Below are positions 1,951 to 40,508 of a stretch of 64,000 nt of DNA, one piece after another. Origin of the DNA: Microbotryum violaceum (taxonomy: Eukaryota); NCBI GenBank assembly GCA_001244265.2, contig CDLV01000014.1:744001-808000 (forward strand), in the 5' to 3' direction. Each line of letters opens with the position of its first letter. The first letter of the stretch is position 1. Made by a program: the position numbers and the translations under genes. A model generated the notes under the pieces. The model ran no database searches. It worked only from the letters and a program-made list of their open reading frames with translations, and was not told the origin of the DNA.

Positions 1951-2604
1951 ATGCTTTCCCCCCTACCCCTCACTCCCGCAGATGTGCTCTCCTCAGCTTG
2001 CCTAACTTCGCTCCCCATCCGATCCAACACGGACCCCACCACATCCCCCCGAACAACCACCCCTCAAGCGGCTCTCAACTCGTCCTCCTCCCTCTCGGAC
2101 GTCCCTCACGCGTCCTACGACCTTTCGATGGACTACGGACCCCAACACGATGGCCACGAGGGAGGGGAAGATTCCTTCTCCAGTAACCAAAGTACCGACA
2201 AAAGTCCAGCGCGACCTGGTCGTACAGTTCCGTCACGAACGGGTCGAGGCAGGGCTCGAGCGCTTTCGATCGCGTGCAGTTCCCCCCATCAGGGGAAAAG
2301 GAACGACGACGATACGGAACGGTCAGCCTTCGACGACGCAGCTTATTCCTATGCCCTACGACCGGAGGAAGAAGACGAAGAAGAAGACGACGAGATTGAC
2401 GGCTTGGAGATGACACACCTCAGTTCGACCACGATCTCTACGCGGGAGTCGCAGAGGGGGGACCAGTTGTCGAGTAGGAGGAAGGATTACTTGAGGAGTC
2501 GGTTCCAACCTCTGACGTATCATGAGATCGGGTGGATGGGCGTGACTGCGCTGGTCGTGCTCGTGCTCAGCGCGGCGGCGGTCGTGCTCGCGGCGATTGG
2601 ATGA
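1951..2604 (+). CDS. Hypothetical protein with C-terminal transmembrane helix
   Basis: Open frame from ATG 1951, low-complexity body, ending YHEIGWMGVTALVVLVLSAAAVVLAAIG*. Confidence 0.55.
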   Translation: MLSPLPLTPADVLSSACLTSLPIRSNTDPTTSPRTTTPQAALNSSSSLSDVPHASYDLSMDYGPQHDGHEGGEDSFSSNQSTDKSPARPGRTVPSRTGRGRARALSIACSSPHQGKRNDDDTERSAFDDAAYSYALRPEEEDEEEDDEIDGLEMTHLSSTTISTRESQRGDQLSSRRKDYLRSRFQPLTYHEIGWMGVTALVVLVLSAAAVVLAAIG

Positions 2605-2910
2605 GGTGGGAGAAACTTCACATGATGGTGATGGGCCAAGGTGGATTCCCGAGTTCTTTTACTGGTACACGAATCGACTGTTCTTGACCATTCGCTGATC
2701 AACCTGGACATGCGCCCTCTTTCGTGATCAGTCAGCCAACTCTCGTCAATCGACACGTGGCGGCGCGCGTGGCACCGCATCCGAAGGATACGCCACCACA
2801 TCCACGACCCTACATTCGTTTCAAAAACTACCATGTTGCACTATGTAACAACAAGTCATACCAGCACGCCCTCCAAAACCCACCGGACGCAATCCACAGA
2901 CCCCGTCGCC

Positions 2911-4304
2911 CTACGACACCACCTCCGCCCCCCCGACCGGGTCCACGTCCTTACCATACCACCTCTCCCACACATCCCCATGACTCCTCGAAATACCCCT
3001 CCAAGCCATCTTACCGAACACCTCCTCATGCAAATCATTTTTCTTCACCTCGGAAACCTTTTCCGAAGTCGACGCTTCGAGATGGTCGAGGACGGAAGGG
3101 TGCAGGTCTTTTAGTGGGTCCAAGGGGGTTAGATGGGCTTGGAGGGTAGGAGAGAAGAAGAAAGGGATTGATAGACGGGGTTCGGTACCGAAGGTGGGAA
3201 GTACGCGATGCGTGGTGGCGGAGTAGACACCGCATGTTAGGCGTTCGCTGGAGGGGGGGGCAAAGTCAGAAATTTCGGGAAGTCAGGGTGTCAGGATGTA
3301 CCGAGCTGGGTTCTTGTGGAATTGTCACTTGCCAAGGGACGTACAGTACTTGACCAATGTTGATGACGAGAGCATACTTTTTCGGCGTCACGTCAATCCA
3401 CACCCCATCCCAAGCTTGGACCTACCCGCATTGGACACGAAAACCCATCAGGCCACGCTTGTACTACAACCTCCCGTCTCCCTTTGAACCCGCACTAACT
3501 GACCTGCAGACCGCCCGTCTGGTCCTGGGCCAGTAAGGTCAACCCACCACCATCCTTATGTGCGCCCACACCTAAAGCGCCCTCATCCTCTTCCTCCTTC
3601 CTTACCACGGGGTATCGCACGACCTTCATCCTCGAATAATCAGGTTCGCATTCCGCCAGCTCTCGATCCCGAGCTGTTTCGGATAGCGGGTACCAGTGTT
3701 TTTCGATGAGGTTGGGGGAAGGGGTGATGGATTGTGCGATGAAATGGAGGAGCGTTTGGGAGATGGTGAGGAGTTGGGAACGAAACGTGAGGATCGAGGA
3801 GCGGAAGTGGGGGACTTGGGTGGAGGTGGGGAATAGGTTGGGGCCATAGAGGGAGAGAAAGAGGTTCGAGGGTGTTTCGGGGTGCGGTGGCGTTTCGGGA
3901 CTGAAATCATATTGTGTCATTTAAAAGGTCTTCTTTATCGTCGTCGGGAACAAGAGTAGATCCACTGTGGTCCTGCAGCGAACTGACCCAAAATCGATCT
4001 GCTCCCTCAAATCCTTCTTGCCCGCCGTCACCTCGACTTTGAACGCCGAATAACCCCTAAAATGCTTCGACTCGAGCATACTGATCTTTTGCTTCTCCTC
4101 TATAGGAAGTTTAAAGAATGCCCTGGAATCACTGAATGCTTGATCCCATGAGTCGATCCAGGAAGGGAAGGAGGACGCGATGTCGTCGAGGTAGAGGAAG
4201 CCGTGCGAGAGGAGGGCGTCGCGCAGTTGGTTGGTGAAGTTTTCGGGAGAGGTTTGGTGCAGGGCATAGGACACGGTAGGGAGACTTCTTATTTGAACTG
4301 TCAT
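2911..4304 (-). CDS. 2-oxoglutarate/Fe(II)-dependent oxygenase (IPNS/DIOX family), multi-exon
   Basis: DIOX_N-like start (LRDALLSHGFLYL...FFKLPIEEK...HFRGY), HxD motif GAHKDGG, ATTHRV and RLSIPFF. Confidence 0.88.
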
Positions 4305-14657: not shown

Positions 14658-17600
14658 TGTTAGAAGTGGGGTCTGAGAGCCTAACTCATTGCTATTAGTC
14701 TTGGTTAATACTTTATTCTGCGCGCGCGCCTATCTTTGTCTTTGCGTCTTTTTTCCTTCTGGGTTCCTTCTCCACGCTATTCTCATCATCTCACTCGTGT
14801 ATCTCGGAGCTGAGTCGTGGAGTACCTCTTAGTCCTTGTTGCAACAGGTTATGAGCTCAACGGGCGAATCCGACTTCCCCAACAGGTCGGGCAATCGCTT
14901 GTATCTCAAGGACACACAAGGGTACAAGAGCTGGTCACAACGTGCGTTTATCAATCTTCGAGCCGACAAAGTATGGGATGTCGTCAATCAATCCATCGAC
15001 TCCCTTGTCGCGGACTATCGGTCCACGCTCGTTATCTCACATGCAACTGCGTCCGTCGCGCCAGTTGAACCAGCCTCCTCCGGCTTTAGCGGGCTTGGGG
15101 GGGGGCTCTGGTTCTGCGCGCGCACTCGGACGCCTCGCCCAGGCTCACCAGCGTTCAAGTTGCGGACAAGGTCGCGGAATATCGCGAACGGGCCATCCGC
15201 CGCAACGATTTGGCATGCAAGTACATCGCCAATTCGATCTCTGAGGAACAGATGTCTCACTTGATTCATCTTACCTCGGCGTACGAGATGTGGGACACCC
15301 TCCGTGGTCTCCACTCTCACGGTCGCCCGAGTCGCACTATGGACCTCCTCAACACTCTAGCGCAACCTTACTCTGGGGATATTCCTTTTAAGGAATTCGT
15401 CAACAAGGTCAAGATCGCCATGTCCGATTTTCAGAACCTCGGAGCTCCGCTTCCGCATTGGCTGTTTGCAGGCATGCTCGTTCGGTCGCTCCCAGCCCAG
15501 TATGACTCGATCGTTGGGAACCTTGCCTCCGACATCGACATCCACATGGATTGGAACACGTTCTATCCGAAACTCCTGATGAACGTCGAAATGGCTGATT
15601 CCCGAAACAAACAAAAGGAATCGTTATCCGCTCAGATCGTTGACGATACTAGCCTCGTCGCCCGTATTTCCACCACGGCGCAAAAGGACTACTCCAAGTC
15701 GTATTGTTCGCGCTGCAAAGCACTGGGACACGAGCGTGGTTGGCGTCTCTGTCCAAGCAGGAACAAGGATGCGAGCGCTCCCGCTTCCTCGGACTCAAAT
15801 TCGAACGTAGCTGCCATTGGTGTAGATGAATCTGCATTGATGACCTACACTTTCCCCTATTTGCGAACGATGCCACGTTTTCCATGGATTATTGACTCGG
15901 GTGCTAAGGTCCATTGTGTTGAAGACAAGTCGGTCCTATCGGACGTTGTCTCTGAGCCTCTCAAAATTTCTGTCGCCGATCAATCTCAAATCGAATCTCC
16001 CGGTCATGGCTCAGTGACGTTTTTTACCTCATATGGCGCTCGTATCACCATTAAGAGGGTCTACTACATGCCCGGTGCTCAATGCGGTTTTATCTCCATC
16101 AACCGTCTGTTGGAATCGATGACGTATGCTGTTGGTCCCCAAAGCAATCTCATTTTCAGCATCCGCGGCAAGTCGATTCTGCGCTCGCTTCCTGGTCGGG
16201 GGTTTGTCATGGATGCAGCTCCTGTTCAGCCTATCATGTCATCCTCACCGCCTTCAATGGTCGGAGCCAATCGTCTCACTGGAACCTGTACGTTGATGGA
16301 AGCACATCGGAAGTTGGGCCATCAATCTTTTGCGGCGATCGTTTTGGCCGTCAAATCCGGGGCTATCACTGGCATCACTCTGAAGGACGAAAAGGTTACT
16401 CCTTGCTTCTCGTGCATCCAGGCCAAGTCAAAGCGATCACCCTTCTCCAACAAGAGTACCGAAGCGCCTCATGCACTCTACCGCGTCTTCATCGATCTTG
16501 GGTTTGTCGAACATCCCAATCACCATGGCGATACTATCTATCTCGCTATTGTGGATCAGTATTTAACGGCTAAATGGACGATCGTGCTAAAGGACAAGAG
16601 GGCTGAGACGATTATCGAAGCATGGTCGAAATTTCAAGCCGAGTCCGAGCGTCAAACGGGTCAGATCGGACAATGGTCGTGAATTCAACAACTCATTGTT
16701 CCGGGCTCTTCTTGAAAAGCAGGGCATCATTGTGGAATTCACGGCCCCCTATACTCCGGAGCAAAATGGTCAAGTAGAGCGACTCAATGGATCTCTCATG
16801 GGTCTCGTTCGATCAATGCTCCTCGACTCCGGTCTTCCCATGCGATTCTGGTCAGATGCTCTGGCCGTCGCGACATTTGTTCTCAATCGTCGACCACATC
16901 CTCGTATTCAAGGAAAAACGGCAATCGAAGTTCTTCTCGGCAAGAAGCCTAGTCTTGCTCATCTTCAGTCATTCGGATCTACGGCGTTTGTCCACGTTCC
17001 CAAGGAGCGTCGCTCCAAGCTTGCACCTCGCTCCATTCAGGGAGTTTTCATTGGGTACTCCGGTGAATACAACTACTGTGTCTGGGTCCAATCGTCAAAA
17101 CAGGTCTACGTTTCGCGTCACGTCACATTCCTTGAGACTCCTTCCGTCGTCACTTCGTCTCAAGATCGTGCGGACGCTTCTGATCCCGTTCATCATTCTC
17201 AACCTCCTCATCCTCCTCATCCTCCGCCAGATGTGTTGCCGTCTACACCAACTTCACCTGTTGTGGATCCAACTTTGCCGGATCCACAGCCTCCTCCGGT
17301 GGTTCCAATTGGAGTTGGTCAACAGGGGGGTACCTTGCAGTCATTCCTCAAGAACCACTCGACGGTGAGGCGGAAGTCGCTCTCGCTCCTCGTGAAGGTT
17401 ACGCCATCGTTTGCACTGGTCCAAATCCTGGCCAATTCGAGAATGTTGATCCTTCCAACATCCTTCCTGCTGGTTCTCGTCGTCGACCTCAACCTCCGGA
17501 AAATATACTTCCCATCATTTCGGCTATCATGGTCGATGTCTTGGATACTCCACCCATGTTCCACGACAAGCTTTCCTACGATGCCTACTGTGCTGCCATG

Positions 17601-19369
17601 TTCACCGAAGAAGACATCGAGATACACAAGACATTCGAGGAAGCCATGAAGTCACCCTATCGCAACCATTGGAGTGCGGCAATGGTCTCAGAACTTCTAC
17701 AATTTGATCATCATGGAGTCTTTCAGGAAGTCAAGTGGCACAAAGGAATTCGGGTACTCGGCACGATCTGGGTCTACAGTATCAAGCGCGATGCAAACGG
17801 CAAAATCATTCGTTTCAAAGCTCGTCTCGTTGCTCAAGGATTTGCTCAACGCCCAGGCATCGACTACCATGACACCTACGCTCCTGTCGCTCGTTCTTCG
17901 ACGATTTTGTTCTTGATTGCTCTGGCTGCTGCTCAGGGCCTGTATCTCAAACAGTTCGATTTTGACTGCGCCTTTCTCAACGGCAAGATGACCGAGGATG
18001 TCTATGTTCGATACCCAAAAGGATGGAATCGTCCTCAATCCCCTGGCAAGTGCCTCAAGCTCGTGGGTTCCATGTATGGCACCAAACAGGCGCCCCGTGA
18101 ATGGTATTGAGCCGTCAACAATCTCATGGTGTCTCGAGGCTACATGAGGGCAACTGCTGATGCTTGCCTCTACATCAAACATTCGGGCACTTCGTTTGCT
18201 ATCATCACTCTCTATGTTGACAACGGTCTCATCGCGTCCAACAATCAGTCCTTCTTGGACTCCGAGCTCGGATCGCTTCACAAGGCCTTCCAGCTCAAGC
18301 GTCTCGGACCCGTCTCCTACTTCCTGGGCTTCGAAATTCATCGCACCAAAGATTACATCCTCGTTCATCAAAGCAAGTATGTCCGCACTATGCTCGAGAA
18401 GTTCGATTTCGCTTCTCCATCCAAGCGCCGTGCAATCACGCCCATGGATGATTGCCCCTCGCTTTGAATCGATGCTACTCCGTTTGCCGATGTGTCATTG
18501 TACCAATTGGCTGTGGGTTCCCTGCAGTACGCGTCCACTCGATGTCGACCCAATATTGTGATTGCTGTTTGTGCCCTTGCTCAAAAGAACTCCTGTCCAA
18601 CTGTTGACGATTGGGCTGCGGTCAAGCGTATATTTCGCTACCTCAACAGCACCATCAATTTGGGAATTCTTTATCGAAACAGTTCCACAACTCGATTGAT
18701 GGTCTATTCCGATGCCTCGTTTGTGGATGACCCGGAATCTCGCAGATCGGTGGGAGCCTATGCATCAATGCTCGCTGGCGGCGTTATCTCCTGGCAGTCG
18801 AAGCAACAATCTATGATTGCTACATCCACTACCAAAGCCGAAATCCTCTCTGCATCCTCAGCCACTCGTGAAGCAATCTGGCTCCGTCGTTTGGCTGGTG
18901 ATGTCGGCATTCCACAAGCACAGCCTACTATCATTCAAGAGGACAACGCCGCATGCATCCAGATCACCAAGGATCCGGTCGATCACATGCGAACCAAGCA
19001 CTTTGACATTGCTCATTTGTTCGTTCGAGAACGGGTTGCTTCTGGTGAGGTCAAACTTGAATCCTGCCCTACCCACGTCAATGCCGCGGATATTATGACG
19101 AAGCCTTTGGGATTTCAACGCTTTGATCAACTTCGTGCGCTACTTGGAATGGTCTCGTTAGTCTCTTTGACCGGTGGGAGTGTTAGAAGTGGGGTCTGAG
19201 AGCCTAACTCATTGCTATTAGTCTTGGTTAATACTTTATTCTGCGCGCGCGCCTATCTTTGTCTTTGCGTCTTTTTTCCTTCTGGGTTCCTTCTCCACGC
19301 TATTCTCATCATCTCACTCGTGTATCTCGGAGCTGAGTTGTGGAGTACCTCTTAGTCCTTGTTGCAACA
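14658..19369 (+). mobile_element. Full-length Ty1/copia LTR retrotransposon, inactivated by stops and frameshifts
   Basis: 189-bp TG...CA LTRs at 14658-14846 and 19181-19369 (one mismatch seen); 5-bp TSD AACTT; PBS GGTTATGAGC; purine-rich GGTGGGAG before the 3' LTR. Domain order: gag zinc knuckle (CSRCKALGHERGWRLC), protease IIDSGA, integrase (H..LGH, CFSC, SDNGREF, PEQNGQVER), RT (KARLVAQG, YVDN), RNase H (ADIMTKPL). Confidence 0.97.
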
Positions 19370-21017: not shown

Positions 21018-21807
21018 GGCCGGCTGGTGGCGGGTTGAGGTAAGAGATAGATATCGAGTATGACGAAGAAGAGAAAAGATAACTTTCATGCACTGAGAGT
21101 TTTGACCCCGAGGGGACAAGCCCTTGCTTGCTAAGCTCACTTAACAAGGGTAGGGTGGGGGAGCCTGATTGCGCAAGTCATCCCTAGGCCGGGATGTTGC
21201 GTGATCCCGAACAGACTCAGCTTGATCGCGCAAACCGGCCGGCGGGAAGCGGGACTACGCAAGCTGACTCATGGTATAAGAGATAGCCCGTCAAGAATTG
21301 CAGCAGAGTACCTATTGTGCCCCATTTCAGGTACCTAGGTTTTTGGCTTTGCGAATCCGATATTCCCCAACTCAGCCGAAGCTTCCCCGCGCAGCTTATC
21401 GTGCCGATCACGCAAGAGCGCGCGCCACAAGGCCCAGCGATGGCGCTAGGGGTCGCGTGATGTGGCACGCGCGCGCTTGCACAGTGCCGAGACACATCAA
21501 GATGTAATCGGGCTCCTCAGTAGCTATTGCCCTATAACAGCTCTTTTTAACCTAGGTAGATGGAGGTATTGTGTGATCACTAAGCGAAAAATAACTGAGC
21601 AGTCCCTGAAGGGATCACCCAATCCAAACTCATTTGCGTTGATGAGGGGCTTTGCCAAAGACGTGACCGTCACCTCGGTGGTTTTTGGCAGCACGAGCAT
21701 ATCACCTTCAAATATCCTGTAGAGATGCACCCAGTTCTGAGACGTCCTTGTCCCCTCCTCTTCACCACCCACAAGTACCATAAAATGTCTCCGCCCACTC
21801 AGCCCTA

Positions 21808-21845
21808 CGTGACCAACGTGACCAACGTGACCAACGTGACCAACC
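21808..21845 (+). repeat. 9-bp tandem repeat (CGTGACCAA)x4 encoding VTN repeats
   Basis: Seen directly. Confidence 0.9.
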
Positions 21846-22093
21846 TGTCCGCTCTTCCCGGCTCGGCCGAGATGAACGCCTACTCGAAAAGTGACGACCT
21901 CAGCAGCTTGGAGAGCGATACCCGGCATGGAAAGGCGAGCACGGTGCTCTCTTCCGATGACGGTTTACTCGAGTGATTCACTCACACATGTGGAGTCCTG
22001 GCCATTCGGATGGGCAGGGGCTAATACACACATTTCGATCACCAGTTTGTACAAGTTTGTACAAGCCTATAATTGGAAAACAAAGGAAAGTTT

Positions 22094-22164
22094 GGCTGAA
22101 CTGAGAATTGAACTCAGGTCCACTCTATTAATCAGATTTGCTCTGACCGCTGAGCTACTCAACC
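22094..22164 (-). ncRNA. tRNA-like cloverleaf (3' LTR copy)
   Basis: Same as 22399-22469, with one substitution in the anticodon stem. Confidence 0.8.
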
Positions 22165-22398
22165 AGTAGGAATAGATGAATATGACGGTGCACCCAAGTC
22201 ACACCGGCGGTGGTTCTACCACACATTGGGAGCCATGGCGGGCGGACTGGTGCACGGTCACATTGACTTCTACTGTCCCCTTCAATTGATTAAACAACTG
22301 AAGCCAACCAACTTAATCAATTGTTCAACTCGTGACCGATCTTAGTTTGCCTTGCGGCAGTGACAGACGCTACCAAATTGGAAAACAAAGGAAAGTTT

Positions 22399-22469
22399 GG
22401 CTGAACTGAGAATTGAACTCAGGTCCACTCTATTAATCAGAGTTGCTCTGACCGCTGAGCTACTCAACC
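22399..22469 (-). ncRNA. tRNA-like cloverleaf with Pol III A/B boxes and non-canonical GATTAAT loop (5' LTR copy)
   Basis: GGTTGAG TA GCTC AGCGGTCA GAGC A ACTCT GATTAAT AGAGT GGAC CTGAG TTCAATT CTCAG TTCAGCC; all four stems pair (two G-U pairs in the acceptor stem). Confidence 0.85.
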
Positions 22470-23769
22470 AGTGGGAATAGATGAATATGACGGTGCACCC
22501 AAGTCACACCGGCGGTGGTTCTACCACACATTGGGAGCCATGGCGGGCGGACTGGTGCACGGTCACATTGACTTCTACTGTGTGGCTCGCCCGCAAGTTG
22601 AACCTCGACTGCTCGTCGCTTCAATCGGATCCTTCTGGCAGCTCTTGTTCTTGATCGTTCTGGTCGCCATTCCCGACAACCTCGGCCGGTGGGCAAAGTA
22701 TGCGATCACTTCGCTACTTCTCGCATTCCCCTATGCCCACCCCAGTGAGTTGAACAACGATTTCCGCAAAAGCCGAACCATTAGATATATGCGCAGACGC
22801 TGAGCTCCGAAACCTTGCTTCATTCGCGCAGTTCTTGTGTCCCTCAACAGCCGCAACTCGGGCAGTGTGCGCACTCGATCGGTCTCGGCAAGTCTTTACA
22901 ATATGTTTGTGCAAGCTGGCTCCATCGTTGCCTCCAACATCTATCAGAGCAGGGACAAGGTGAGCGAAGGGGAAGGGACCAGACTGCGCGCCCGTCTGAT
23001 TGCGCCTGAGACTGACTTCTGCGCGCTTCACCGGATACCATAGCCGTACTACCGTCACGGAAACCGTGTACTCCTCGGTATCGTATCGTCCAACATTGTG
23101 CTCTTCTTCTTGGTCAAATTCTACTACGTCGCGCGCAACCAACAGCGTGCCAAGAAGTGGGAGGCGCTCACGGTCGACCAACGTCGCACGTACCTGGAGA
23201 CCACCAAGAACGAAGGCAATCGCCGCTTGGATTTCAAGTTTGCCCATTAATGCTCCAGAGGCTGTATTTGGCGAATCTTTACTTTCATAAAACTATTTAG
23301 ACGCAGTATTAGTATTGCGATTGGTCTCAGGACGGTATAATTTATCTGCAGTGGTTTACAGATTCAGTTTGGGTATTAAGTTTAGGTTCTTGTCTGTACA
23401 ATCAGCGGCATTGAGGGGTCTCGCTCCCGAATAGTGTATCGCGGTGGGCTTATGCAACGGTTGTTATCATCTTTGGCTTGATCCTGACTATAGTCGGGTA
23501 CAGCGGCGCGGATGAGAATGCTTCAACGAAGCGCATTAGTACCTGCGCATACCTCGGGCCGTTTTGGGTCGACGTCTTCCATAACCGATCATCCCACAGC
23601 GCGCCAAGTCCCGTCAACCTCTGCCACCCACCTCGGCTCGCTTCTGCTCCGTTCAACTTTGCCCAGCTACGGCCCCAAAACCAACCAACGTCTGTCCGTG
23701 AACTCTTGGATTACGTCTTCCCATCTTTCTTCCTTCACACGTCGAACCCGTCGTATCTGTTGTCTCGCA

Positions 23770-25186
23770 ATGGCCATGGCCAGCTCGGCGTCAGCCAGTT
23801 CGTCGTCCCACATCGAGCTGCCGTTGATCACCGTGCAGCCGACGTTCCCCGAGGTCGTGCACGACATCGGCTCAGATAGCGACGCTTCGGCTGAGGATTG
23901 TTGGATCTCGTGCTATTGGAAGGGCAAGACTTCGGTCCATGGCAAAGTGAGGGTGCTCGAAGCCGAGGGAGGGGGTGCGGTAGAGCTGGAGGCCCGGGAC
24001 GGGGTCACGTGCCGAATGGTCGATGGCAAGGTATGGAGCGAATGCATGATCCAAACGCTCTTCATACGTGACTTGTCTCTCTGACGTGACTCGGATGATT
24101 ACCGTGGCGCAGACTACAACCCTCGAGTGTTCGTGTGAGCAGCTGGCAATACCCCCCACTTTGGTCCACTTCCCGCTTCGCACCGATCGATTGGCCGACT
24201 TCGGACCCGTCAACTCGTTCGACATCGCTCCGGACGGCTCTCGCTACGTCGTAGGCGGAGACAACGGCTTGGTGCGAGTTGTCGAGCTTTCGCCTTCGCA
24301 CTCATCCACGCAAGCGCCGCGGCAGATCGCGCTCAAAGGTCACCTGGCCGATCTCACCGTCGTGCGATTCTTCCCGTCGAGCGAAGTTGTGCTCACCGGA
24401 GCGATGGATATGACCATTCGGATCTATTCGGCTCTAAGCGGGAAAGAGGTTAGGACCCTGACGGGCCACACAAAGTCCGTCTCGGGATTTTTCATTCTCG
24501 GCAAGGGCAGGAGGATCCTCTCGTCGTCGCTCGACGGAACGATCCGATTATGGAACATTGCCGAGGCCAAAGTGGAAAGGACGTGGAGTTTTGACCAACC
24601 CGTGTCTGCTTTCACGGTGTCACAGTTCACCGGATCGACGGCCTTGGCGGAGGACTACCCCGAAATCGAGGAGCTCTACGCCATCGCCGCGCACACGAAC
24701 GGTTCTGCAACGGCGCTTCCCCTCGGCACCGACACCGCTGCTCCCTTGCTACGATTGAGAGCTGGCTCATCGCCCCTGCACTCGATCGCGCTCGATTCCG
24801 ATTCTGGCCGACTTGCTTTGGGATCTCGGAACGGCTGCGTTGCTCTGTTCCAGCTTCCTGCTCTCGATGCAGCCAGCCCAAGACCGGCGCAGGAGACGCT
24901 TGCCCCGCTGTTGACATTATCACGGTCCGATACTGTTGTCCATCGACTCTGCTTCAGCACTACTTCGAATCTGGCACCGACGCAAGATCTTCTTGTCGCT
25001 GGCGCCGACGGACTCCCATTCCGAGTAACCTTACGTCAAGACCCTTCCGATGCCACAAGTACAACGGCATCAATCGTGGATGAGTACTCCGGCTTGAACT
25101 GTGAAGCAGCTACTTCCGCCATGACGTCGAATGGGTGCATCTGGGTTGCTGGCGCCGATGGGATGATTAGGCGATATGAGGGTTAA
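23770..25186 (+). CDS. WD40 protein, proteasome chaperone Rpn14/PAAF1-like (one intron ~24031-24112)
   Basis: N-terminal IT.QP...CWISCY...SVHG; WD repeats LKGHLAD...FFPSSEVVLTGAMDMTIRIYS and LTGHTK...SSSLDGTIRLWN. Confidence 0.8.
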
Positions 25187-25980
25187 GCCGAGACCACGCT
25201 CCAGCCGCGACCCCAACGTGATTGTGCAGGAACCTGCTTCGGCTATTTTCAATTTGTTACCTAGATACCACCCAGTTGAGTTTGTGCGTCCAGCGAGTCC
25301 GGCAACAGCGACCGATCGACTTGAGCTTGAAGCGGCCCGGGCGATGATGTCACGTGCCCGTACGCCCAGTAATTGGAACGCGATTTCGACTCTCCTGACC
25401 ACTCGCGCGAGTCGTAGCGGAATAGTGGTTCGAGTTGCAGCAAGACGAAGGACAACATTGGTGTAGGAATTGTTAAAAAGTCAAGCGGTGAAAACCCAGC
25501 CTTCTGGGGAAAACCGCAAGAGATCGATCTAAACGGAAGAGAGTCCGAACTTCTTGGTGATACACAGGGATGGTGGGCGGGATGACAATTGGGAGCTTTG
25601 CGACCCAAGCTTCTGGATGTCAGACGGCTGCAACTGATGATGGAGCAAGTCCACTGATCGTCTCAGCATACCTTTGCGACAAAGGCAAGACACTGTATAA
25701 AGACAGTTGTGGCGCGGTTGGTGCAAAGGACGGCAAAGGGTCTGCTGAGAGATATGCGATTTAGCTCGTTGCCCAACAAGGACTCGGAGCGAAATGCCCC
25801 CACAAAGAATTTGCAGGGATCCAAGTGCAAAGTACACCGTGCAACACGCTTGGGTGTATCGAAGCATTACCCCGAGCTACTCTAAGCGAGCCACGTCGAG
25901 GGTTTCATACTGAGCTGCTAGCAGCTGTGAACGTCCGGCAAGATGGAACTCTCGATCAGCGACCTCGTCAGCTGGGAGGT

Positions 25981-26310
25981 AGTCTTGGGAGTGAGGAACG
26001 CACCTGTCCCTACAGGTGGTGAACGCAGCCACAGAAGCTGGTAAGGAAACGTCGACAACGCAGTGAGGGCCCGAAAGGGAACGTGCGTTGCGAGTACCGC
26101 CCGTGAGCTCGCCTGTGGGAAGCACAGCTATAGCATCCACTGGGGGAAGCGTCGACAACGCAGTGAAGGCCCAAGGGAACGTGCATTGCGAGTACCGCCC
26201 GTGAGCCCGCTTGTGTGGAAGGCACAGTATAGCATCCACGGGGGAGAGAGGGTCCGTGCGCGCGAGCCTGAATCGGCGCGTCAAATCCTTGCAGCAAAAG
26301 CCGAAAAGAC
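25981..26310 (+). repeat. LTR-like ~330-bp repeat, copy 1, with internal 2 x 100-bp tandem unit
   Basis: 25984-26310 matches 29148-29474; begins AGTCTT after purine-rich GGGAGGT. Confidence 0.8.
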
Positions 26311-26871
26311 CATGGGTTGATACGGTTGAGTGGCTCACTTGAACCGGCGATGTGCAGGAGTAATGAGGATAGGAACCTTGCCGGGTCGAAGAACGCCGCT
26401 TTGATGGCTTGTTGCTTGAGCTGCTGAGAAAGGTTGAGAGTTGAGAAGCTGGGTGATAAACCCTGTTATTCCGCTCATGTGACTTACTCCACGGTTCCTA
26501 CCCCCAACATTCACATCGCTCACAGTTTCGAGTCCGCACGTCTTGACCCCCGAGCTCCAGTTCGAAACGCCCGACTTGAGCGCAGACTCATAGGACGCGT
26601 ACGCGTCTTTGTGGGATAGGGAGCGATCCTTGCATTTGCCACATACAACCAAACGACCCTCGCCGCGAGAGAAGTCGCGGTCGACAGACAGATCGACATG
26701 GCTCCAGTTGTCGCCCCTCTTTCAAAGCAATAGCACCTGCAAAGCGTCGGCGTAGCGAGCTTGCCAGCGATCATTTGCGGAGCCACCTCTCAGCTGAGAG
26801 TAGTAATTTTGCGCTTCTTTGTTCGTGGCAAATTCCGTACACACAAGGTCCTCCTCAGCAGTGGGGAGGTC

Positions 26872-27028
26872 TGTTGGAATCAACGATGATCCCGAAAATG
26901 ATCAACAAAAGAAGAAGAACGGCTGGACCAGGAGTCGAACCTACGTCGCTTCCATTAATCGGAAAAGCTTTGACCACTAAGCTATCCGGCCCCTGATAGC
27001 AGTGCAAGGTCTACTAACACCTTCAACA
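26872..27028 (-). mobile_element. 157-bp LTR (TGTTG...CAACA) containing a tRNA-like gene, preceded by a PPT
   Basis: Minus strand: AAGGGGAAG|TGTTGAAGG ... ATTCCAACA; 5-bp terminal inverted repeat. Confidence 0.75.
26921..26991 (-). ncRNA. tRNA-like cloverleaf with A/B boxes and GATTAAT loop (second family)
   Basis: GGCCGGA TA GCTT AGTGGTCA AAGC T TTTCC GATTAAT GGAAG CGAC GTAGG TTCGACT CCTGG TCCAGCC; canonical B box GGTTCGACTCC. Confidence 0.85.
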
Positions 27029-27277
27029 CTTCCCCTTAGACCTTTGCACTGCTGCCAGGCTATTGCAATGCGTCGACTCTAAGTCCCAATTTGGACTCTG
27101 TGTCAAGCTTCTGCGGCAGCTCCGGCTGCTATGTGCAGCGTCACTGGGAAGATTTTACATGAAGGGTTCTATAATAGATCCTCACACTTCCCCTTAGAAC
27201 CTTGCTTTGGCATCTTGCTCTACAGCATGGTTCGGAGACAGCCGCCACTTTCTCTTGTTAACCGACAGACGCTACCA

Positions 27278-28690
27278 AGTTAAATTTCGGTGCGAGGCGA
27301 TCTTTGGTCCAGGGAGACGAGAACACAAACTTCTGCTTCTGTCAACGGTCGATAGCAGACTCAATGATTGGTGAGGAACCAATCAAGAGGACTCCGCACC
27401 GCCGCTGACGCAGTCCGCACCTCCCTGGCCAAAATGGCTTAAACTACCCAAAAACCCCAAAGACGCTTCTAGCCATTACTGCTCGCGTAGTCCCTTCCAA
27501 CACGCCCCCTGGCGAGGAGCGTCCACCATTCCAAGCATCCGAACGACTCCGACTCGTGCGGTGCGCGCGAGAGTTCCTTGGTGAATCCGTCCGCGACCAT
27601 CTCCTTGGTCCCGATCCATCGGAGCTCGATGATGCCGTTCGAGACAAATGTGATTAATTGTGCCGCGCAGATAGCGAAGAACTCGCCGCATTTGCCTAAA
27701 GTGGTCCGGTTTCGGATCGGCGCAGTGTCTTGACAGTTGGGTGACCGCATAAGAGATATCGGGCCTTGTGCATCCTGAAACCTAGAGGAGCTTACCAACA
27801 ACCTGGCGATAGTTGAGCTTGAGATGAGCAGTACCTCCATCTGAGTGCTGATCGCTGTCGGAGGTTGGGGTTGCCACCGCGGAAGCGTTCGCAAACCCGT
27901 GATTGTTCAGGATGGTCTCGATCTGGTGGCACTGGTCAATGGTCATGATCCCCGATGCGTCGTCGGTGGCAATCTTCATCCCCAGGAATAGCTCGATCTC
28001 GCCTCGCTTGAGCTTGAACTGTTGATCGAACTTGCTGAGGAACCCTTCGAGATCGTCGTCGCCGGCGAGAAGACCGTGGTCGACGTAGATGGCCAAGAGA
28101 GTCGTGCGATCGACGCCCCCGATGTTGCGAACCCTTCAGTAGACCCCAAAGACCTCCTCCATTCGCTTGAAACCGCGATCGACGAGCGCAGCATGCAAGA
28201 CCTTGTTCCACTCACGACCCGACTGCTTGAGACCATACAGGGATTTGCGCAGTCGATGGGTGGAACCGTCCGGCAGCTTGATCCATAGTGGTTCGGTGAG
28301 GTGACCGTGAAGGTATGCGCTGTTGACGTCGAACTGAAGCCGCCGATACCCTTTGACATGAGCTATGACGTTGATCATCCGGATGGACGCGATTCGAGCT
28401 GTCGGTGAGAATGTTTCCCCGTGATGGTTCTGGAGATCCCCCCGTGCGACGATCCTTGCCTTGTACTTGATGATGTCACCTTTGTCATTCCGCTTGCGGA
28501 TGAGGACGACCTTTGTTGGGATTGCTCGAATTCCTGGCGGCGGATCGGTGGCCTCCTTGTCCCATGTGTTCATGCCGTTCAGAATCGAGTACTCAGTCAT
28601 GAGGGAAATGGACCAATCCTCGCGATCCTCGCCGGTCATCGCCTGCTTGTAAGTCGGCTCGTTAGGACCAGGTCGGGATCCATCTTGCTA
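27278..28690 (-). mobile_element. 5'-truncated, degenerate Ty1/copia (RT, RNase H, PPT, LTR 27502-27278)
   Basis: EPTYKQAM...W, KYKARIVARGD, QFDVNSAYLHG, LRKSLYGLKQSGREW, IYVDH, MVADGFTK; PPT AGGGGGCG then TGTTGG at 27502. Confidence 0.9.
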
Positions 28691-29147: not shown

Positions 29148-29475
29148 CTTGGGAGTGAGGAACGCACCTGTCCCTACAGGTGGTGAACGCAGCCACAGAA
29201 GCTGGTAAGGAAACGTCGACAACGCAGTGAGGGCCCGAAAGGGAACGTGCGTTGCGAGTACCGCCCGTGAGCTCGCCTGTGGGAAGCACAGCTATAGCAT
29301 CCACTGGGGGAAGCGTCGACAACGCAGTGAAGGCCCAAGGGAACGTGCATTGCGAGTACCGCCCGTGAGCCCGCTTGTGTGGAAGGCACAGTATAGCATC
29401 CACGGGGGAGAGAGGGTCCGTGCGCGCGAGCCTGAATCGGCGCGTCAAATCCTTGCAGCAAAAGCCGAAAAGACT
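29148..29475 (+). repeat. LTR-like repeat, copy 2 (first 3 nt missing)
   Basis: 327-bp match to 25984-26310; ends AAGACT, running into TGG. Confidence 0.8.
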
Positions 29476-34083: not shown

Positions 34084-35376
34084 ATGGCTCAGGATTCGCC
34101 CACCGCCTCGACGTCATCTGTAGCAGCCAAAGCTCCCCAACCGTGCGAGGCGCTCCAGAATGGCCGCCGGAAATGGCGTGTGACGGTGCTCATCTCTGGA
34201 TCTGGTCAGTTGGGGATCATTGTAGAACTAGATAGGATCTGGTGTCTGACATTTGCTTACATATTCCACATGTCGACTTGCGCTGGCTCGGAACGTTTGC
34301 ACTTCGCACTTCAACCCCACCGTATCTTACCTTGACGCTCTGTATCGACGGAGCGGCGTATAGGCTCAAACTTGGCAGCCCTGATCGCCGCATTACCTAC
34401 AACACTCTCGCAATGCTGCATCACCTCGGTCTTCAGCAACGCCAAGGATGCCTACGGTCTTCAGCGTGCCGCTTCCCATTCGCCGCCCATTCCGGCCTCG
34501 TCCTTTTCCCCCTACAACCACCAGAAAGCCCACCCCGAGTTGTACTCGTCCATCGAAGCTCAACTCAAGTCGCTGCAGCAGCAATCGCAGGCCGCAAAAG
34601 AAGGATCGAGCGAACGCGCCAAGCTTGATCGTGAATGGAAGGAGCTCAAAAAGACCCTCGCCTCGACGATCAAACCACGTTACCAAATCGAGTTGGCCGA
34701 AAGGGTACGAGCGACTCGGCCGGATTTGATCGTACTAGCTGGGTTTATGTTGATTCTGCTACCCGAGACGCTCGAGACCCTGAAGCGTGATTGGGATGAG
34801 GACGACGTCGAGTGGGACGGAGCGGGTTCGACCGTGACCTTGGGCACATCGGCTTATCCTGATCTGACAGGATTGAGAGGACGTTCTATTCCCATCATCA
34901 ACCTACACCCTGCCCTACCGGGAAGCTTCATCGGGCCCCACGTGATCGAGGATGCGTGGGAAGCTTTCAACCAGCGCCGGTTGCCCGCCAAGGAAGGGGA
35001 CACGCCTGGACCTGTATGGGATCAAGAGAAGGAGAGCAAGCCCTCCCCCTTTGGTGAAAAGATCACCAAGACGGGTATTATGATCCATCGGGTGATCCCC
35101 GAGTTGGATCGAGGCGAACCGGTGCTATGGAAGGAGGTCGAGATGAAGGTCGGGGAGGCGTTGGATGAGCTCAAGGAACGGATACACAAGGTTGAACATG
35201 GCGCGATCGTCGAGGCGGTCAAGCAGGTTACGGAGCAACTTGGGGGTGGGACATGGTGGGAGCGTGAGGGTCATCGAGATCAGGGAACCGAGATGGCAGC
35301 AGACTCGACGAAATCTGCTGCAAAGCCTGACTCTGAAAAGGTGACAGCAACAGATGCTGCTTCTGGGGGGAAATAG
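34084..35376 (+). CDS. ADE8: Phosphoribosylglycinamide (GAR) formyltransferase
   Basis: VTVLISGSG|SNL.ALI, PDLIVLAGFM.IL, IINLHPALPG.F.G, TGIMIHRVIPELDRGEP, RIHKVEH. Confidence 0.92.
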
Positions 35377-35660
35377 ACTGGGGTGACAGGTGTAATCTAA
35401 TCACTTGCGCTTTGTTGCCTCATTGGAAAGCTGTGCTTGATGCCTGTACACCGATCTGCGCAGCTCGGTGCCGAGTTGCATGGTCCGTACGAGTGAGGCT
35501 TCCCCGCTTGGCGTCTTCCTCGGCTTCAGATTGCCTCGGCTGCGCTCTCTTGCGCCCCTCGGCCCCCCTCTCCTCGACTCCCACGCGCTCGCGTCCCCCA
35601 GCTGCTGGTCGCCGTCGCCGCCCATCTAGCCACCTCGACAGCACAGCATCAGCACCAGCC

Positions 35661-38600
35661 ATGTCGGCCGAAGCATTGCCACCTACCCGTAGGTCCCCCT
35701 CCCACGCCCGAGGTGTTCACCCTGCGGAGTCAGGCTGCCGTCGTCTGCCATCGTCCGTGGTGGTGGGGCCGCCGCTGCTGCCGGCTGCTGATGTGATCGA
35801 GGCCGGATGACTGGCCGGTACTGACCGTACTGACCACTGACACTGAACACTGACGCTCATCGGTCTCACTGCTCGCACAGTCGCCCGGTATCGGCCAGCC
35901 CCTAATGAGAAGGAGGCGATGTTGCATCTCTTCAACAGAGGTACGTCTCCTGCACCGTCCGCGCTTGTCGTGTATTGTAATGTGGCTGCCGGTGACTGAT
36001 CCAGCCTCGCCTCGTGTGGTGCTACCAACCCGACACAGCCGACACCGATCAGCTCGGCGTGCTCAGTCAGTCAGCTCCGCTTTCTCGGCGACGAATGCTT
36101 CCCGCCAGCCTACTGATCTTGAACCCGTTCCCCACCTCACAGCCGGAGACAAGGCGGTCCCTTTCTTCCAGCACTCGTCGTTGCCGCCGACCTTGCTTGG
36201 TGAGATCTGGCAACTCGCCGACCCCGAGAACAGCGGATTCCTGTCCCCGGACCGGTTCGCCATCGCCTGTCGCTTGATCGGCCACGCCCAGGCTATCGGA
36301 GCCGATGCTCAGATTGATGATAGCTGGGTGGCCACCCGTGCGTTTGCTTCTCTGCCTTGCCCCCGTTGAACTTGGAATGACTAACGCCTCGTTCTCACCG
36401 GCCGTCCCGTCCCCACCCTGCCTTTCACGACCCCTCCCCATCAGCCGGACCGTTCCCCAAGTTCGACGGTTACCCCATCCCTCCCAACCTCAATAAGCCA
36501 GCGGCACCTGCAGCATCTGCGCCCTCGACACACTCGCGCCCCTCCACTTCGGCGCTCTCCCCACTCCAGGTTCCCAATAAAGCAGGCGGCCCCGGAACGT
36601 CCGTGACGAATGACGAAAAGCTCCGCTACGCCACCTTGTTCAACAACTCGGGACCTGTCGCTGGATTACTCGATGGTACGTTCGCGCGCGATGAATGTTG
36701 TAGGGCCGTGTCGGTTTCACTGACTTGCTCTCCACGGCGCACGTTCAAACAGGCGAGAAAGCTCGTGACATTTTCATCAAGTCCAAGTTGCCTTTCGAGA
36801 CGCTCGGTCAAATTTGGCATGTCGGAAACTCGAGCAGTGGGTTCGACTGGCACACGCTGATTCAGATCCGATCCCAACAGGAACCTCGCCGATACTCACT
36901 CGCGAGGCGCTTTGGACGTGGCCGATTTCACGGTCGGCATGCATCTGATCCAGCATACGATGAATGGGTCTCTGCCGTCACTTCCTGCCGTCCTCAACCC
37001 GGCCCTGTATGCTTCGGCCATCTCGTTGCCTGTGCCCAACACGTCGATGCCCGGATCACCCGCCCTCGGCTCTCGGCTTCCTCAAAGCCCGCTGCGCCAA
37101 AGCAGCGTACCTCCTCGCACCGTCTCCCACTTTGCTCCAACTTCTCCTATCACCCCCACTCATCCGGCCCAGATCCCCTGGGAAATTACTGCGCAGGAAA
37201 AGCTGGAGAGCGACGGATACTTTGACGGTATAGACTCGACTCGACGAGGTGCGATCGAAGGGGAGGCGGCGGTCAACTTCTTCATGCAGAGTGGTCTACC
37301 GATGGACATCCTGGCCCGGGTTTGGGACCTCGCGGATATTCGACAGACGGGTGGTCTCAACAAGGACGAGTTCGCCGTAGCGCTCAAGCTCATTCGCGAT
37401 CGCGTCGGCGGCAAGGAGATCCCTGCGGTCCTCCCCGTCGGCTTGACGCCCCCCAGCCTCCGTGCACCCACTGGCTTCGCCGCTTCCCAAGCCCAACCTC
37501 AGCGGGACTTGCTCGATCTGTTGGATGATGACGCGAGCCCCTCAATGTCGACGGGTCCGCCGCTTCGTTCCACCTCCGCTATCGTCCCGCAAGGCACGGG
37601 TAGCTCGTCCCATCAGCAACAGCAAGCCGGTCGACGTAGTCTCTCACCCCAGCTCACTGGACAACAACAGGCCCGTACCATGTCGCCGCAACTGACTGGA
37701 CAGGCCACGCCGATTTATGGCTTGCAAGGCACGATCTTCCCGCAGACGACTGGTATGGCGTTGAGCCCTCAGGCGACCGGCTTTGCCAACAGTTTCGGGT
37801 CGGGTCAGCAACCGCTACGACAGTCGTCGCTCGCTGATTCCTCTGGCACTGTCATTACTGCTCACACGGCCACAGTTACCAACTTCTTCGACGATAATGA
37901 CGATGCCGACACGCAAGCGCACCTCTCGGCGAACCAGACGCAGCTCAAGTCGCTCGAGGCAGAGCACAAGTCTGCTGCCGAGTCCGCGACTAGCCTTGCG
38001 CAATCCCGCTCCGAACTCGAGGCCTCCCTTTCGGCGACGACGACGCAGATCAACGAGCTGCAAGTCAAGTTGTCGCAAGCTCGCGCTGCGCACGAAACAG
38101 AACGTCAGATGGTCGACGATCTTGTCAAGCGCAATGAAGAACAGAAAGCCGTTCTCGCTCGAGCCCGACACGAACTGATCGCGGCCGAATCCGACCTCTC
38201 GGCATTGCGCATGGAGCGTTCCGAGATCGAGGGTCAGCTTTTGCGCGACAAGGAGGACGTTAGGGCGATGAAGAAGAAGATGGCCGATGTTGGTCACGAG
38301 ACGGCGACATTCAAAGAGACGCTCGAGAAACTCAAGAAGGAAGCGCGTCAGCAAAAGGGGTTCGTCGCCATCTCGCGAAAGCAGTTGAGTACGGCCGAAG
38401 GCGAGAAGGAGAAGGCCGAAACCGAGCTCAAGGCTGCCGAGCGCAGCGTCGCCAACGGCGAAAGCCTTGCTGGGGTCGAAGCCGTGGAGGAGGACTCTCC
38501 TTTCGATCACTCCCACTCTGTCGTAGCACACAACGTCGGTCACGCCGCTGCAGTCGCTTTGCCTGCCTCGCCGCCTGCTGTCGTTTCCCCCGTCGGCTCG

Positions 38601-40508
38601 GTCAGGTCCAACAACCCCTTCGATCGCTGGGGTGGTATTTCTCAAACCGTCACGCCTCAGGCCACCGGAGATGTCACGGCTCCGGCTCCTCACACTAGAG
38701 AGCAACAACCGGCAGCGTCGTCGTCAGCGCCTGGCTTGCCTACCGCAGTGGCTGGAGCAGTGGGTGCTGGGGCCATCGCCGCCGCCGGGGCTGTCGCCGC
38801 TGGAGCTGCTGGTCTCATTGGTTTCGGAAAGAGCGACAAAAGCGAGGCTGAGGACAAGTCATCCGCGCACGCCGACACGTCGGCCGCCGCTCCTATCGAG
38901 CCCTCCGAAACGGACCCGTTCGGAGTTCCGATCGAGCGTGACGCAACCGCAGCGGCCCCGCCAACGTCCAAATCAGCTTTCGACGCCGCTTTCGACGATG
39001 GATTCGGCGACAATTTCACCGTTTCCTCGGCCCCTGTCGTTGCCTCAACCGCTTCGACGCCTGCGTTCGACGACGTATTCAACTCTTCTTTCCCGACCGA
39101 GATTCCGGCTACAGTTCCTCCCGCAGCGGAAGCAGCAGTCACAGCGGAAGCAGTTCCAGACGCTATCGCACCTGTGGCTGCCTTGGATCGGGCAGAATCC
39201 CCCAGTGTCCCCGCGGAGCCTGTCTCGGCGCACGAAGAGACACCCGTAGCTCCTTCCGCCGTTGAAGAGCTCGCCGACGAGGACGACAGCGACAGCAGCG
39301 AGGACGAGCCCGAGATTGAAGACCCCGTGGGAACACATCATCGCTCGGCCTTCGCGGAGGACGAAGCGGTCGTCACTCCGACTTCCGGCAGCGCGCAAAC
39401 AAACTCGGTCTCGGACAGTGGAGAATCATTTGTCCATGTGCCAGCCGCTGTACCAGAGACGGAGCCAATCCAATCCATTGCTGCCCCCGCCCAGGTTGAT
39501 GAGCCCCATGTCGCCAAGACAGAGCCTGCACCTGTGGCCACAGCCGTAGATGCCGAACCCTTCACCTCGACAATGCACGAGGAAAAGATCTCGAGCGATG
39601 ACGATACCTTCGAGGAGGCTTCGCATGGGGATGCCGGACAGACTGAAGCAGCGGCTGCCTCTGAACTGCCCGGAGGATTCCCTACCTCATTAGCAGGGCC
39701 CGAAATTCGGTCAGAACCGGCTACCCCTGTTCTCATGTCTACACCGACGAGCGCAACCCCGCAACGAAGAGCCGCTCCTCCTCCCCCTTCGCGATCAACT
39801 GCCAGCTTTTCGTCGACTGCACCTTCGTTCGGCACAACCACGGCGGATGGAGGTCCTTCGACCTTCTCAAACGCCGACTTTGACGATGCGTTCGGTGACT
39901 CTTTTACCGCTGCGCCTACGACGACGACGACAAGCGGGACCGACGATTTCGACGAAGCCTTTAGTGACCTCGGACCCGCTGCCCCCGTCGAGACGGCATC
40001 GGCTCCATCAGTCCCACCAGTTGCCGCGCCCGCGCATGGCGACTTCGATTTTGATGACGAGGTGTTCGACTTCAAACCCGATTTCCGCGAGACCTCGCCG
40101 TCCAAGTCCGTCGCAGGCACGGATCCCGCTTTCGAAGACTCGTTTGCGAGCTTTGATTCTGCATTCGATGATGCGCCCAAGGCGGGTACGACGACTGGAA
40201 AAGTCTTGAGTGACAGTCCCGCGACTGGGTTTGATTTCGATGATACCTTCTCAGGACGTGCCACGACCGCACCGACTGCTGCGACGCTCGATGCGGCGAA
40301 GCCCGACGACGCGGAGGATGTCAAGCAGATCGTTGGAATGGGGTTCTCGAGGAAGCAGGCTTTGGATGCGCTGGAAAAATTTGACGTGAGTTTCGACCAA
40401 TCTGTTTCCTTGCTTCGGCCTACTTTGATGCTGACTGTCATCCCTTCCCTTTACCCGGGCTTTCAGCATGATGTCAATCGGGCGACGAACTCTCTGCTCG
40501 GCATGTAA
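35661..40508 (+). CDS. EDE1: EH-domain endocytic scaffold (Ede1/Eps15-like) with coiled coil and C-terminal UBA
   Basis: Three EH domains (LGEIWQLAD, LGQIW|NLAD, LARVWDLAD), coiled coil, NPF/DPF motifs, UBA MGFSRKQALDALEK...DVNRATNSLL. Confidence 0.92.

Follow-up and report, generated by a model that had tools for sequence, protein, structure and literature searches.

A 157-bp repeat in the DNA of the anther-smut fungus Microbotryum violaceum contains a sequence that resembles a tRNA, and the locus raises the question of what this tRNA-like module is and why it sits where it does. It could belong to a host tRNA gene within duplicated DNA or to the working parts of a transposon, and, in the latter case, selection could act on the fold of its RNA or only on the A and B promoter boxes that it carries. 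An earlier reading, made from the letters alone (here, the sequence-only reading), had favored a conserved structural module shared by several miniature LTR families.

We searched for tRNA-like sequences with ARAGORN and the Rfam model RF00005 (gathering score 29) over the 64-kb window, namely the whole stretch of DNA analyzed (GC ~55%), and compared LTRs by BLAST (word size 7, E up to 0.01). Logan contigs from four public runs with four organism codes (X1, X9, X14 and X17) were aligned to positions 21900-27500 at 80% likeness. Run X17 is guessed to be RNA, and its ratio of repeat depth to neighboring-gene depth resembles that of the DNA runs. The window belongs to the anther-smut species complex, to judge from its MCM4 ORF/exon at 50230-52179(-): over 98% of its length, this shows 100% identity to a Microbotryum silenes-dioicae protein, with 98% identity to the protein of M. 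saponariae and 95% to that of M. lychnidis-dioicae.

The 157-bp repeat and its dispersed copies

The copy near 27 kb of the window (the 27-kb copy) has the following features:

26872-27028, minus strand: LTR of 157 bp, TGTTG...CAACA
26895-26919, minus strand: T-rich trailer behind the module, with T4 runs at 26907-26910 and 26895-26898
26920-26991, minus strand: tRNA-like module of 72 nt, with acceptor, D, anticodon and T arms and a 4-nt variable loop
27029-27037, minus strand: polypurine tract (PPT) AAGGGGAAG, directly upstream of the LTR start
27038-27263, minus strand: non-coding internal region, PBS to PPT, with a second PPT-like copy at 27187-27205
27264-27277, minus strand: PBS TGGTAGCGTCTGTC, a 14-mer identical to that of the element near 22 kb described below
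27279-27502, minus strand: a different LTR of 224 nt (LTRc), TGTTGG...TTTAAC, preceded by a PPT, AGGGGGCG, and Copia RT/RNase H remnants

The repeat also opens with TGTTG and closes with CAACA on the plus strand. Its identification as an LTR in the sequence-only reading is borne out by its TG..CA ends and by the PPT that abuts it on the minus strand. The tRNA-like module has the same sense as the element and sits close to the LTR 3′ end, and the minus-strand layout probably runs from a U3 of ~37 nt through the module to a 48-nt stretch made up of the T-rich trailer and U5. The T4 runs of the trailer are candidate weak Pol III stop sites, and a further TTTT lies inside the module itself (26963-26966). 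The PBS is located 226 nt upstream of this LTR's PPT, and the PPT plus TGT is found again as a 22-nt copy at 27184-27205 within the internal region.

The 157-bp LTR is a dispersed high-copy repeat with defined termini at 26872 and 27028. In X1, it is covered by 24-26 distinct contigs, and its summed word depth at single places is 35,069-39,734 against ~237 for the flanking single-copy gene DNA, a ratio of ~150x that we take to indicate no more than a copy number between tens and a hundred or above, since summed word depth does not equal copy number. Loose contig ends with unlike flanks fall exactly at 26872 in 11, 7, 13 and 4 contigs of X1, X9, X14 and X17, respectively, and at 27028/27029 in 5 contigs of X14 and 4 of X17. 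The repeat was found in all four of the runs compared, across their four organism codes, with high summed depth in each.

The depth of the internal region, including 27088-27153, is ~2,300-3,700 in X1, about one-tenth of that of the LTR, which is the pattern expected if solo LTRs outnumber complete elements. Paralogous contigs from X1, X9 and X14 align across 26950-27186, which spans part of the LTR and of the internal region; thus, the link between the two characterizes the family and is no peculiarity of this one locus. A joint 26312>27031 in X1 and X14, which hinted at some other repeat after the PPT, was left unused, its shorter side being only 28 letters long.

A second miniature family and the rearranged 27-kb copy

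A second, dissimilar miniature LTR family in the window also contains the module, as the sequence-only reading had claimed, and uses the same 14-nt PBS. It is represented by a complete element near 22 kb (the 22-kb element):

22071-22581, minus strand: complete miniature element of 511 bp, comprising LTR, PBS, 99-bp internal region, PPT and LTR
22376-22581 and 22071-22276, minus strand: LTRs of 206 nt each, 99% identical
22362-22375, minus strand: PBS TGGTAGCGTCTGTC, 14-mer
22277-22283, minus strand: PPT GAAGGGG, at the end of the internal region and abutting the LTR start
22398-22469 and 22093-22164, minus strand: tRNA-like modules, 112 nt into each LTR

To judge from its sequence, this family follows the same plan as that of the 157-bp LTR, with an unrelated U3. 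In the 64 kb, the PBS 14-mer has two exact matches and no more, at 22362-22375 and 27264-27277; both are on the minus strand, and each adjoins an LTR end. The 22-kb element contains no ORF, its depth is ~9-25x that of single-copy DNA, and its sense strand has only two runs of at least four T, each 13 nt behind a module.

The single complete copy shows no 5-bp target-site duplication (minus-strand flanks ...GCCAC and ATAGG...), and its LTRs end in ACAG...AATT, not TG...CA. Elements reshuffled by recombination between copies lose their target-site duplications, and we take the missing duplication together with the odd ends as a sign of such recombination. In a contig of organism C, positions 22056-22579 are replaced by 1695 other letters with both flanks continuing; thus, the locus is structurally polymorphic among related fungi. 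This contig was considered as an empty site for the 22-kb element and ruled out because of the 1695 other letters, no duplication being derivable from it.

Two local repeats were also observed here. Within the internal region, a perfect 11-nt inverted repeat, CAATTGATTAA...TTAATCAATTG, is located just upstream of the PPT (22290-22330(-)) and contains the same GATTAA core as the loop of the module. Just upstream of the element, 21804-21848(+) has 4-5 tandem copies of a 9-nt unit, CCAACGTGA, within an ORF.

The 27-kb copy, by the order of its parts, appears to be rearranged, with the 157-bp LTR as its 3′ LTR and a different, Copia-type LTR 5′ of the PBS. That other LTR, LTRc, occupies the place of the 5′ LTR for the PBS at 27264-27277; it has no similarity to the 157-bp LTR by BLAST and no tRNA-like match with either Rfam or a custom covariance model. 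No partner LTR of its own kind was found for the 157-bp LTR within the 64-kb window. RVT_2 matches at 28136-28687(-) and 27782-28135(-) mark Copia remnants beside LTRc, which may point to the Copia family that mobilizes the miniature elements. With LTRc followed directly by the PBS of the miniature elements, the arrangement looks like a tandem or chimeric LTR-internal-LTR-internal-LTR structure.

The surroundings are a nest of transposon pieces, with high depth across 25266-26387 and 27136-27500. Two 327-bp direct repeats, at 25984-26310 and 29148-29474, are 100% identical, each with an internal 100-bp duplication; between them lie the Copia RT remnant and the LTR with the tRNA-like module. 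Both the 327-bp repeat and 25266-25983 are also very high-copy in the aligned runs, and the former, with ends that are not TG..CA, is probably another transposon family. A full-length Copia element occupies 14658-19369(+). Its 189-bp LTRs, TGTTAG...GCAACA, are 99% identical, and a clean 5-bp target duplication, AACTT, flanks it at either side. It has Gag, beta-barrel and pre-integrase domains, its pol frame is split over several ORFs, and its PBS region (GGTTATGAGCTC...) is unlike that of the miniature elements.

The tRNA-like module in the two families

A cloverleaf of equal geometry in an otherwise dissimilar LTR had been proposed in the sequence-only reading, and both programs recover it. 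ARAGORN predicts cloverleaves at 26920-26991(-), 22092-22165 and 22397-22470, all labeled 'tRNA-Stop' with anticodon tta, and RF00005 scores the 27-kb module at 38.8 bits (E 1.2e-4) and the two 22-kb copies at 49.9 and 43.3 bits. All three tRNA-like matches in the 64 kb lie inside terminal repeats and are oriented as PBS to PPT, and the Rfam scan found nothing else in the window near a tRNA. A custom covariance model trained on the three copies and applied with filters off recovers only those three in the window, the next match scoring 11.1 bits (E 0.67).

The anticodon loop, GAUUAAU, is identical in both families, with an A at position 33 and UUA as the 'anticodon'. It is not a normal tRNA loop, since A stands where U33 should be; the modules have neither U33 nor a sense anticodon, both of which mark a canonical tRNA. 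Box A, TAGCTTAGTGG, and box B, GGTTCGACTCC, were read from the sequence of the 27-kb module and compared with the general consensus of such boxes. By that consensus, we take the 27-kb family to have perfect boxes and the 22-kb family weaker ones.

Outside the module, the claimed lack of evident similarity between the two LTRs holds: BLAST at the settings given above detects none, and a MAFFT alignment leaves only the T-rich trailer and the terminal CCAA in common. Besides the anticodon loop and these two, the families have in common the PBS, an 8-nt D loop and a 4-nt variable loop ending in GAC.

The 27-kb module differs from that at 22398-22469 at 25 of 72 positions (47/72, or 65%, identical), with 19 of the 42 stem positions differing as against 6 of the 30 unpaired ones (Fisher p = 0.04). 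Without the discriminator base, the count is 24/71; a script thereby reproduced the figures of the sequence-only reading, which had counted 24 differences, 19 of them in stems. The stem sequences are likewise exactly as it gave them, written here as the 27-kb version against the 22-kb version: D stem, GCUU/AAGC vs GCUC/GAGC; anticodon stem, UUUCC/GGAAG vs ACUCU/AGAGU; and T stem, GUAGG/CCUGG vs CUGAG/CUCAG. Its statement that pairing is largely kept agrees with the pair count over the three copies: among 21 pairs, 95.2% of the 63 cells are paired, and 7 pairs are changed on both sides with pairing kept. This count was reached in 0 of 500 shuffles, and sliding the partners by 1-3 columns yields only 0-2 such pairs.

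Plus-strand positions 26943 and 26944 read G, G in every covering contig (24 in X1, 12 in X9, 18 in X14 and 7 in X17), so the two T-stem mispairs flagged by Rfam are private to the copy in the window. The T stem of the other copies is CCAGG/CCUGG, which is fully paired, and its use raises the number of pairs changed on both sides from 7 to 8.

The cloverleaf energies are -17.4 kcal/mol for the 27-kb module and -22.0 and -18.9 kcal/mol for the 22-kb copies, which is 2-4 kcal/mol from the MFE and was reached in 0 of 500 shuffles. The MFE folds of the modules are not cloverleaves, and that of the 27-kb module (-19.5 kcal/mol vs -17.4 for the cloverleaf) is no better than those of its shuffles (z -0.25). 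As tRNAs often behave likewise, we rejected the thermodynamic fold alone as a test.

These comparisons encompass only two independent lineages, since both 22-kb copies belong to a single element, as its two LTRs. Further, compensated stems alone cannot separate selection on the fold from two captures, because any two genuine tRNAs differ in the same way. The contention that selection acts on RNA structure thus survives in part: the compensated stems and the shared aberrant loop speak for it, while two lineages are few and pair counts by themselves do not suffice. The best argument for common descent followed by compensation is the identical, non-canonical 7-nt loop. Were its positions to change at the rate of the stems (19/42), the chance of 0 changes in 7 would be ~0.015, and neither the anticodon loop nor the anticodon stem is part of the A and B boxes. 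Within the transposon lineage, selection on how the RNA folds is therefore plausible but unproven.

A pattern search gave a further point of reference. The tRNA backbone with this loop had 0 matches in 185,579 prokaryote genomes, a control that covers prokaryotes only, and the same backbone with a canonical YU-NNN-RA loop had at least 120 matches in such genomes. The backbone with the GATTAAT loop also had 0 matches in a metagenome collection, where the fungal DNA of this group may be missing.

A probable Helenus-type assignment and competing readings of the module

The best explanation, which we hold to be very probable, is that 26872-27028 is an LTR of a Helenus-type (TRIMp3) non-autonomous family in Microbotryum, and the 3′ LTR of a rearranged copy. 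Helenus elements are TRIMs with tRNA-derived sequence in their LTRs and have been grouped with Cassandra (5S) and Ajax as TRIMp3 (Kojima 2024, Biology 13:119, PMC10886601). According to the same account, they are probably mobilized by Copia elements and have total lengths of 311-1263 bp. Those of fungi show 5-bp duplications, a Copia-like PBS, conserved TRGCY..YGG and GGTTC motifs, many solo LTRs and several coexisting families per genome, and tRNAscan-SE often calls them 'suppressor' or assigns a mismatched isotype (PMC10886601).

The likeness to our elements extends over all of these points but the duplication. The 511-bp 22-kb element has the short, non-coding LTR-PBS-internal-PPT-LTR architecture; the 27-kb copy has only the PPT, the internal part and the PBS beside its LTR, its 5′ LTR being of another kind. 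A tRNA-like sequence with A and B boxes lies inside each miniature-family LTR (RF00005, ARAGORN). The 27-kb module contains TAGCT..TGG and GGTTC, both matching the Helenus motifs, and the 22-kb modules contain TAGCT..CGG and AGTTC, which amounts to one mismatch. Several dissimilar families are found in one genome, with LTRs far outnumbering internal parts; the 157-bp LTR belongs to a dispersed multicopy family with defined termini; tRNA predictors return a 'suppressor' call; and the host is a fungus with abundant Copia elements. The differences are that the sole complete copy here lacks a 5-bp duplication and has ends other than TG/CA, that the host is Microbotryum (Microbotryales), and that the invariant, palindromic, non-tRNA loop with its compensated stems forms a pattern absent from the discussion in PMC10886601. 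The assignment to Helenus would thus be one of anatomy and published description, as distinct from a consensus-level comparison with named families.

The elements are of a known kind in a new host lineage. Helenus has been reported from Pucciniales and three Agaricomycetes, and from none of Microbotryum, Leucosporidium and Rhodotorula, in a screen by similarity search seeded with known families (PMC10886601). Given the elements described here, either that screen missed them or they have a separate origin; the reported absence against the presence here implies that similarity screens miss diverged families. The host range of the Helenus type is thereby extended to the anther-smut fungi, where it was previously reported absent. 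In the accessible text of the M. lychnidis-dioicae genome paper, the number of SINEs is given as 0 and the word TRIM is absent, and in that of a 2025 paper on rust transposons neither Helenus nor tRNA comes up; our search of the literature on Helenus/TRIMp3 or Microbotryum TRIMs found no other description. As far as that search extends, these appear to be the first elements of the Helenus type noted in Microbotryales, a statement that the supplements to Kojima's paper might qualify.

Two other systems provide useful comparisons. Cassandra elements are TRIMs of plants whose LTRs carry a Pol III unit resembling 5S rRNA (Kalendar et al. 2008, as cited in PMC10886601 and PMC10853983). Insofar as these citing accounts describe them, they resemble the present elements in having TRIM LTRs with a small-RNA gene, an internal Pol III promoter and T-run stops, and in the conservation of the small-RNA part while the remainder of the LTR varies; they differ in that theirs is a 5S unit in plants and ours a tRNA-like one in a fungus. 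The Rfam scan gave no 5S rRNA match in the window at E up to 10. Like the present elements, SINE2 elements are non-autonomous and high-copy, and their tRNA-like head, with its A and B boxes, is a Pol III promoter that can be carried from place to place. However, SINEs lack LTR, PBS and PPT and are moved by LINEs, whereas the module here is embedded in an LTR beside a PPT and a PBS; it lies inside a PPT-bounded TG..CA repeat, and no A-rich tail was found. The ancestor of the module may nevertheless have been a SINE.

By analogy with Cassandra and Helenus, a replication scheme can be outlined for these elements. The A and B boxes of the module would recruit TFIIIC/TFIIIB and RNA polymerase III, with transcription starting at approximately the first base of the module in the 5′ LTR. 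The polymerase would then read through the weak T4 runs, traverse the PBS, the short internal region, the PPT and the U3 of the 3′ LTR, and terminate at the T runs that follow the second module; the R region would consist of the module and trailer. Initiator tRNA-Met would prime at TGGTAGCGTCTGTC, and the Gag, RT and integrase of a Copia element would be supplied in trans. Pol III transcription, the read-through, the extent of R, the identity of the primer and the Copia helper are all modeled on those two systems. The start-and-stop part of the scheme is unproven, because the T4 runs are minimal stop signals and a TTTT lies within the 27-kb module. With respect to the primer, the complement of the PBS ends in ...GCUACCA, which implies a tRNA with an A1:U72 pair and discriminator A. 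Such a pair is typical of eukaryotic initiator tRNA-Met, which we presume to be the primer for TGGTAGCGTCTGTC. Copia elements are present in the window, as the full copy at 14658-19369 and as RT remnants near the 157-bp LTR.

The shared module might instead have arisen twice, each LTR family having captured a different tRNA gene or tRNA-derived SINE, with the stem differences being those ordinarily seen between tRNAs. We regard this as rather unlikely, though several observations fit it: the LTRs are unalignable outside the module, the modules themselves are just 65% identical, only two independent sequences are at hand, and Kojima proposes several births of Helenus via SINE2 insertion into TRIM LTRs (PMC10886601). 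Against two captures stand the identical 7-nt anticodon loop with the non-tRNA A33, a loop pattern with 0 occurrences in the prokaryotes-only control where the canonical loop had at least 120, and the shared variable loop ending in GAC, 8-nt D loop, trailer, CCAA and PBS. Scarcely credible is a reading of the modules as host tRNA genes within duplicated DNA, ochre suppressors for instance, whether still genuine or inactivated only recently. Such genes would account for the scores above the Rfam gathering threshold and for the perfect A and B boxes of the 27-kb copy, but not for the A at position 33 and the stop-codon anticodon, nor for the confinement of three of three tRNA-like matches to terminal repeats bounded by PBS and PPT. 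Moreover, it is the entire 157-bp unit, and not the 72 nt alone, that is repeated with exact ends in tens of contigs.

Alternatively, the module might not drive transcription at all, serving as a TFIIIC-bound boundary against silencing, as an insertion landing pad, or as an RNase P/Z signal on a Pol II transcript. That the A and B boxes are its best conserved parts, that it is surrounded by a nest of transposon pieces and that the T4 runs are weak stops, with one inside the module, are in line with a role of this kind, which we consider distinctly improbable. Nothing in the window speaks directly for it, it leaves the invariant anticodon loop and the compensated anticodon stem unexplained, and Pol III transcripts have been reported for the related Cassandra, as cited in PMC10886601. 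For Helenus itself, Pol III transcription is described as unvalidated, and Kojima regards the Pol III boxes as the conserved parts and the RNA as probably non-functional as a tRNA (PMC10886601).

Going beyond the Pol III boxes of the Helenus-type module, the tRNA-like fold might itself be a selected RNA element of the transposon, a proposal that we advance tentatively and hold to be unlikely. On this proposal, an ancestral module would have lost tRNA function (A33, stop anticodon), after which the stems would have evolved by compensated changes with the loop fixed as GAUUAAU. The loop core AUUAAU is self-complementary and, by way of speculation, the loop could act as a kissing-loop dimerization signal or as a signal for packaging into Copia particles; alternatively, it could offer RNase P/Z or La a handle and in this way define where the R region begins and ends. 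If the proposal is true, Helenus RNAs would be structured functional RNAs, and the lineage would predate the split of the two families in Microbotryum. The compensated stems and the fixed, odd loop offer a concrete test of selection on RNA structure versus selection on the promoter only.

The presence of such LTRs also bears on genome annotation and regulation. Scored as tRNA genes, they would enter annotations as 'suppressor' tRNAs and swell or confuse the tRNA set. If depth is a fair guide, about a hundred repeats bearing a predicted Pol III promoter would be present in a genome of ~25 Mb, which could have consequences for chromatin boundaries and for the regulation of genes in a model system of sex-chromosome-like evolution.
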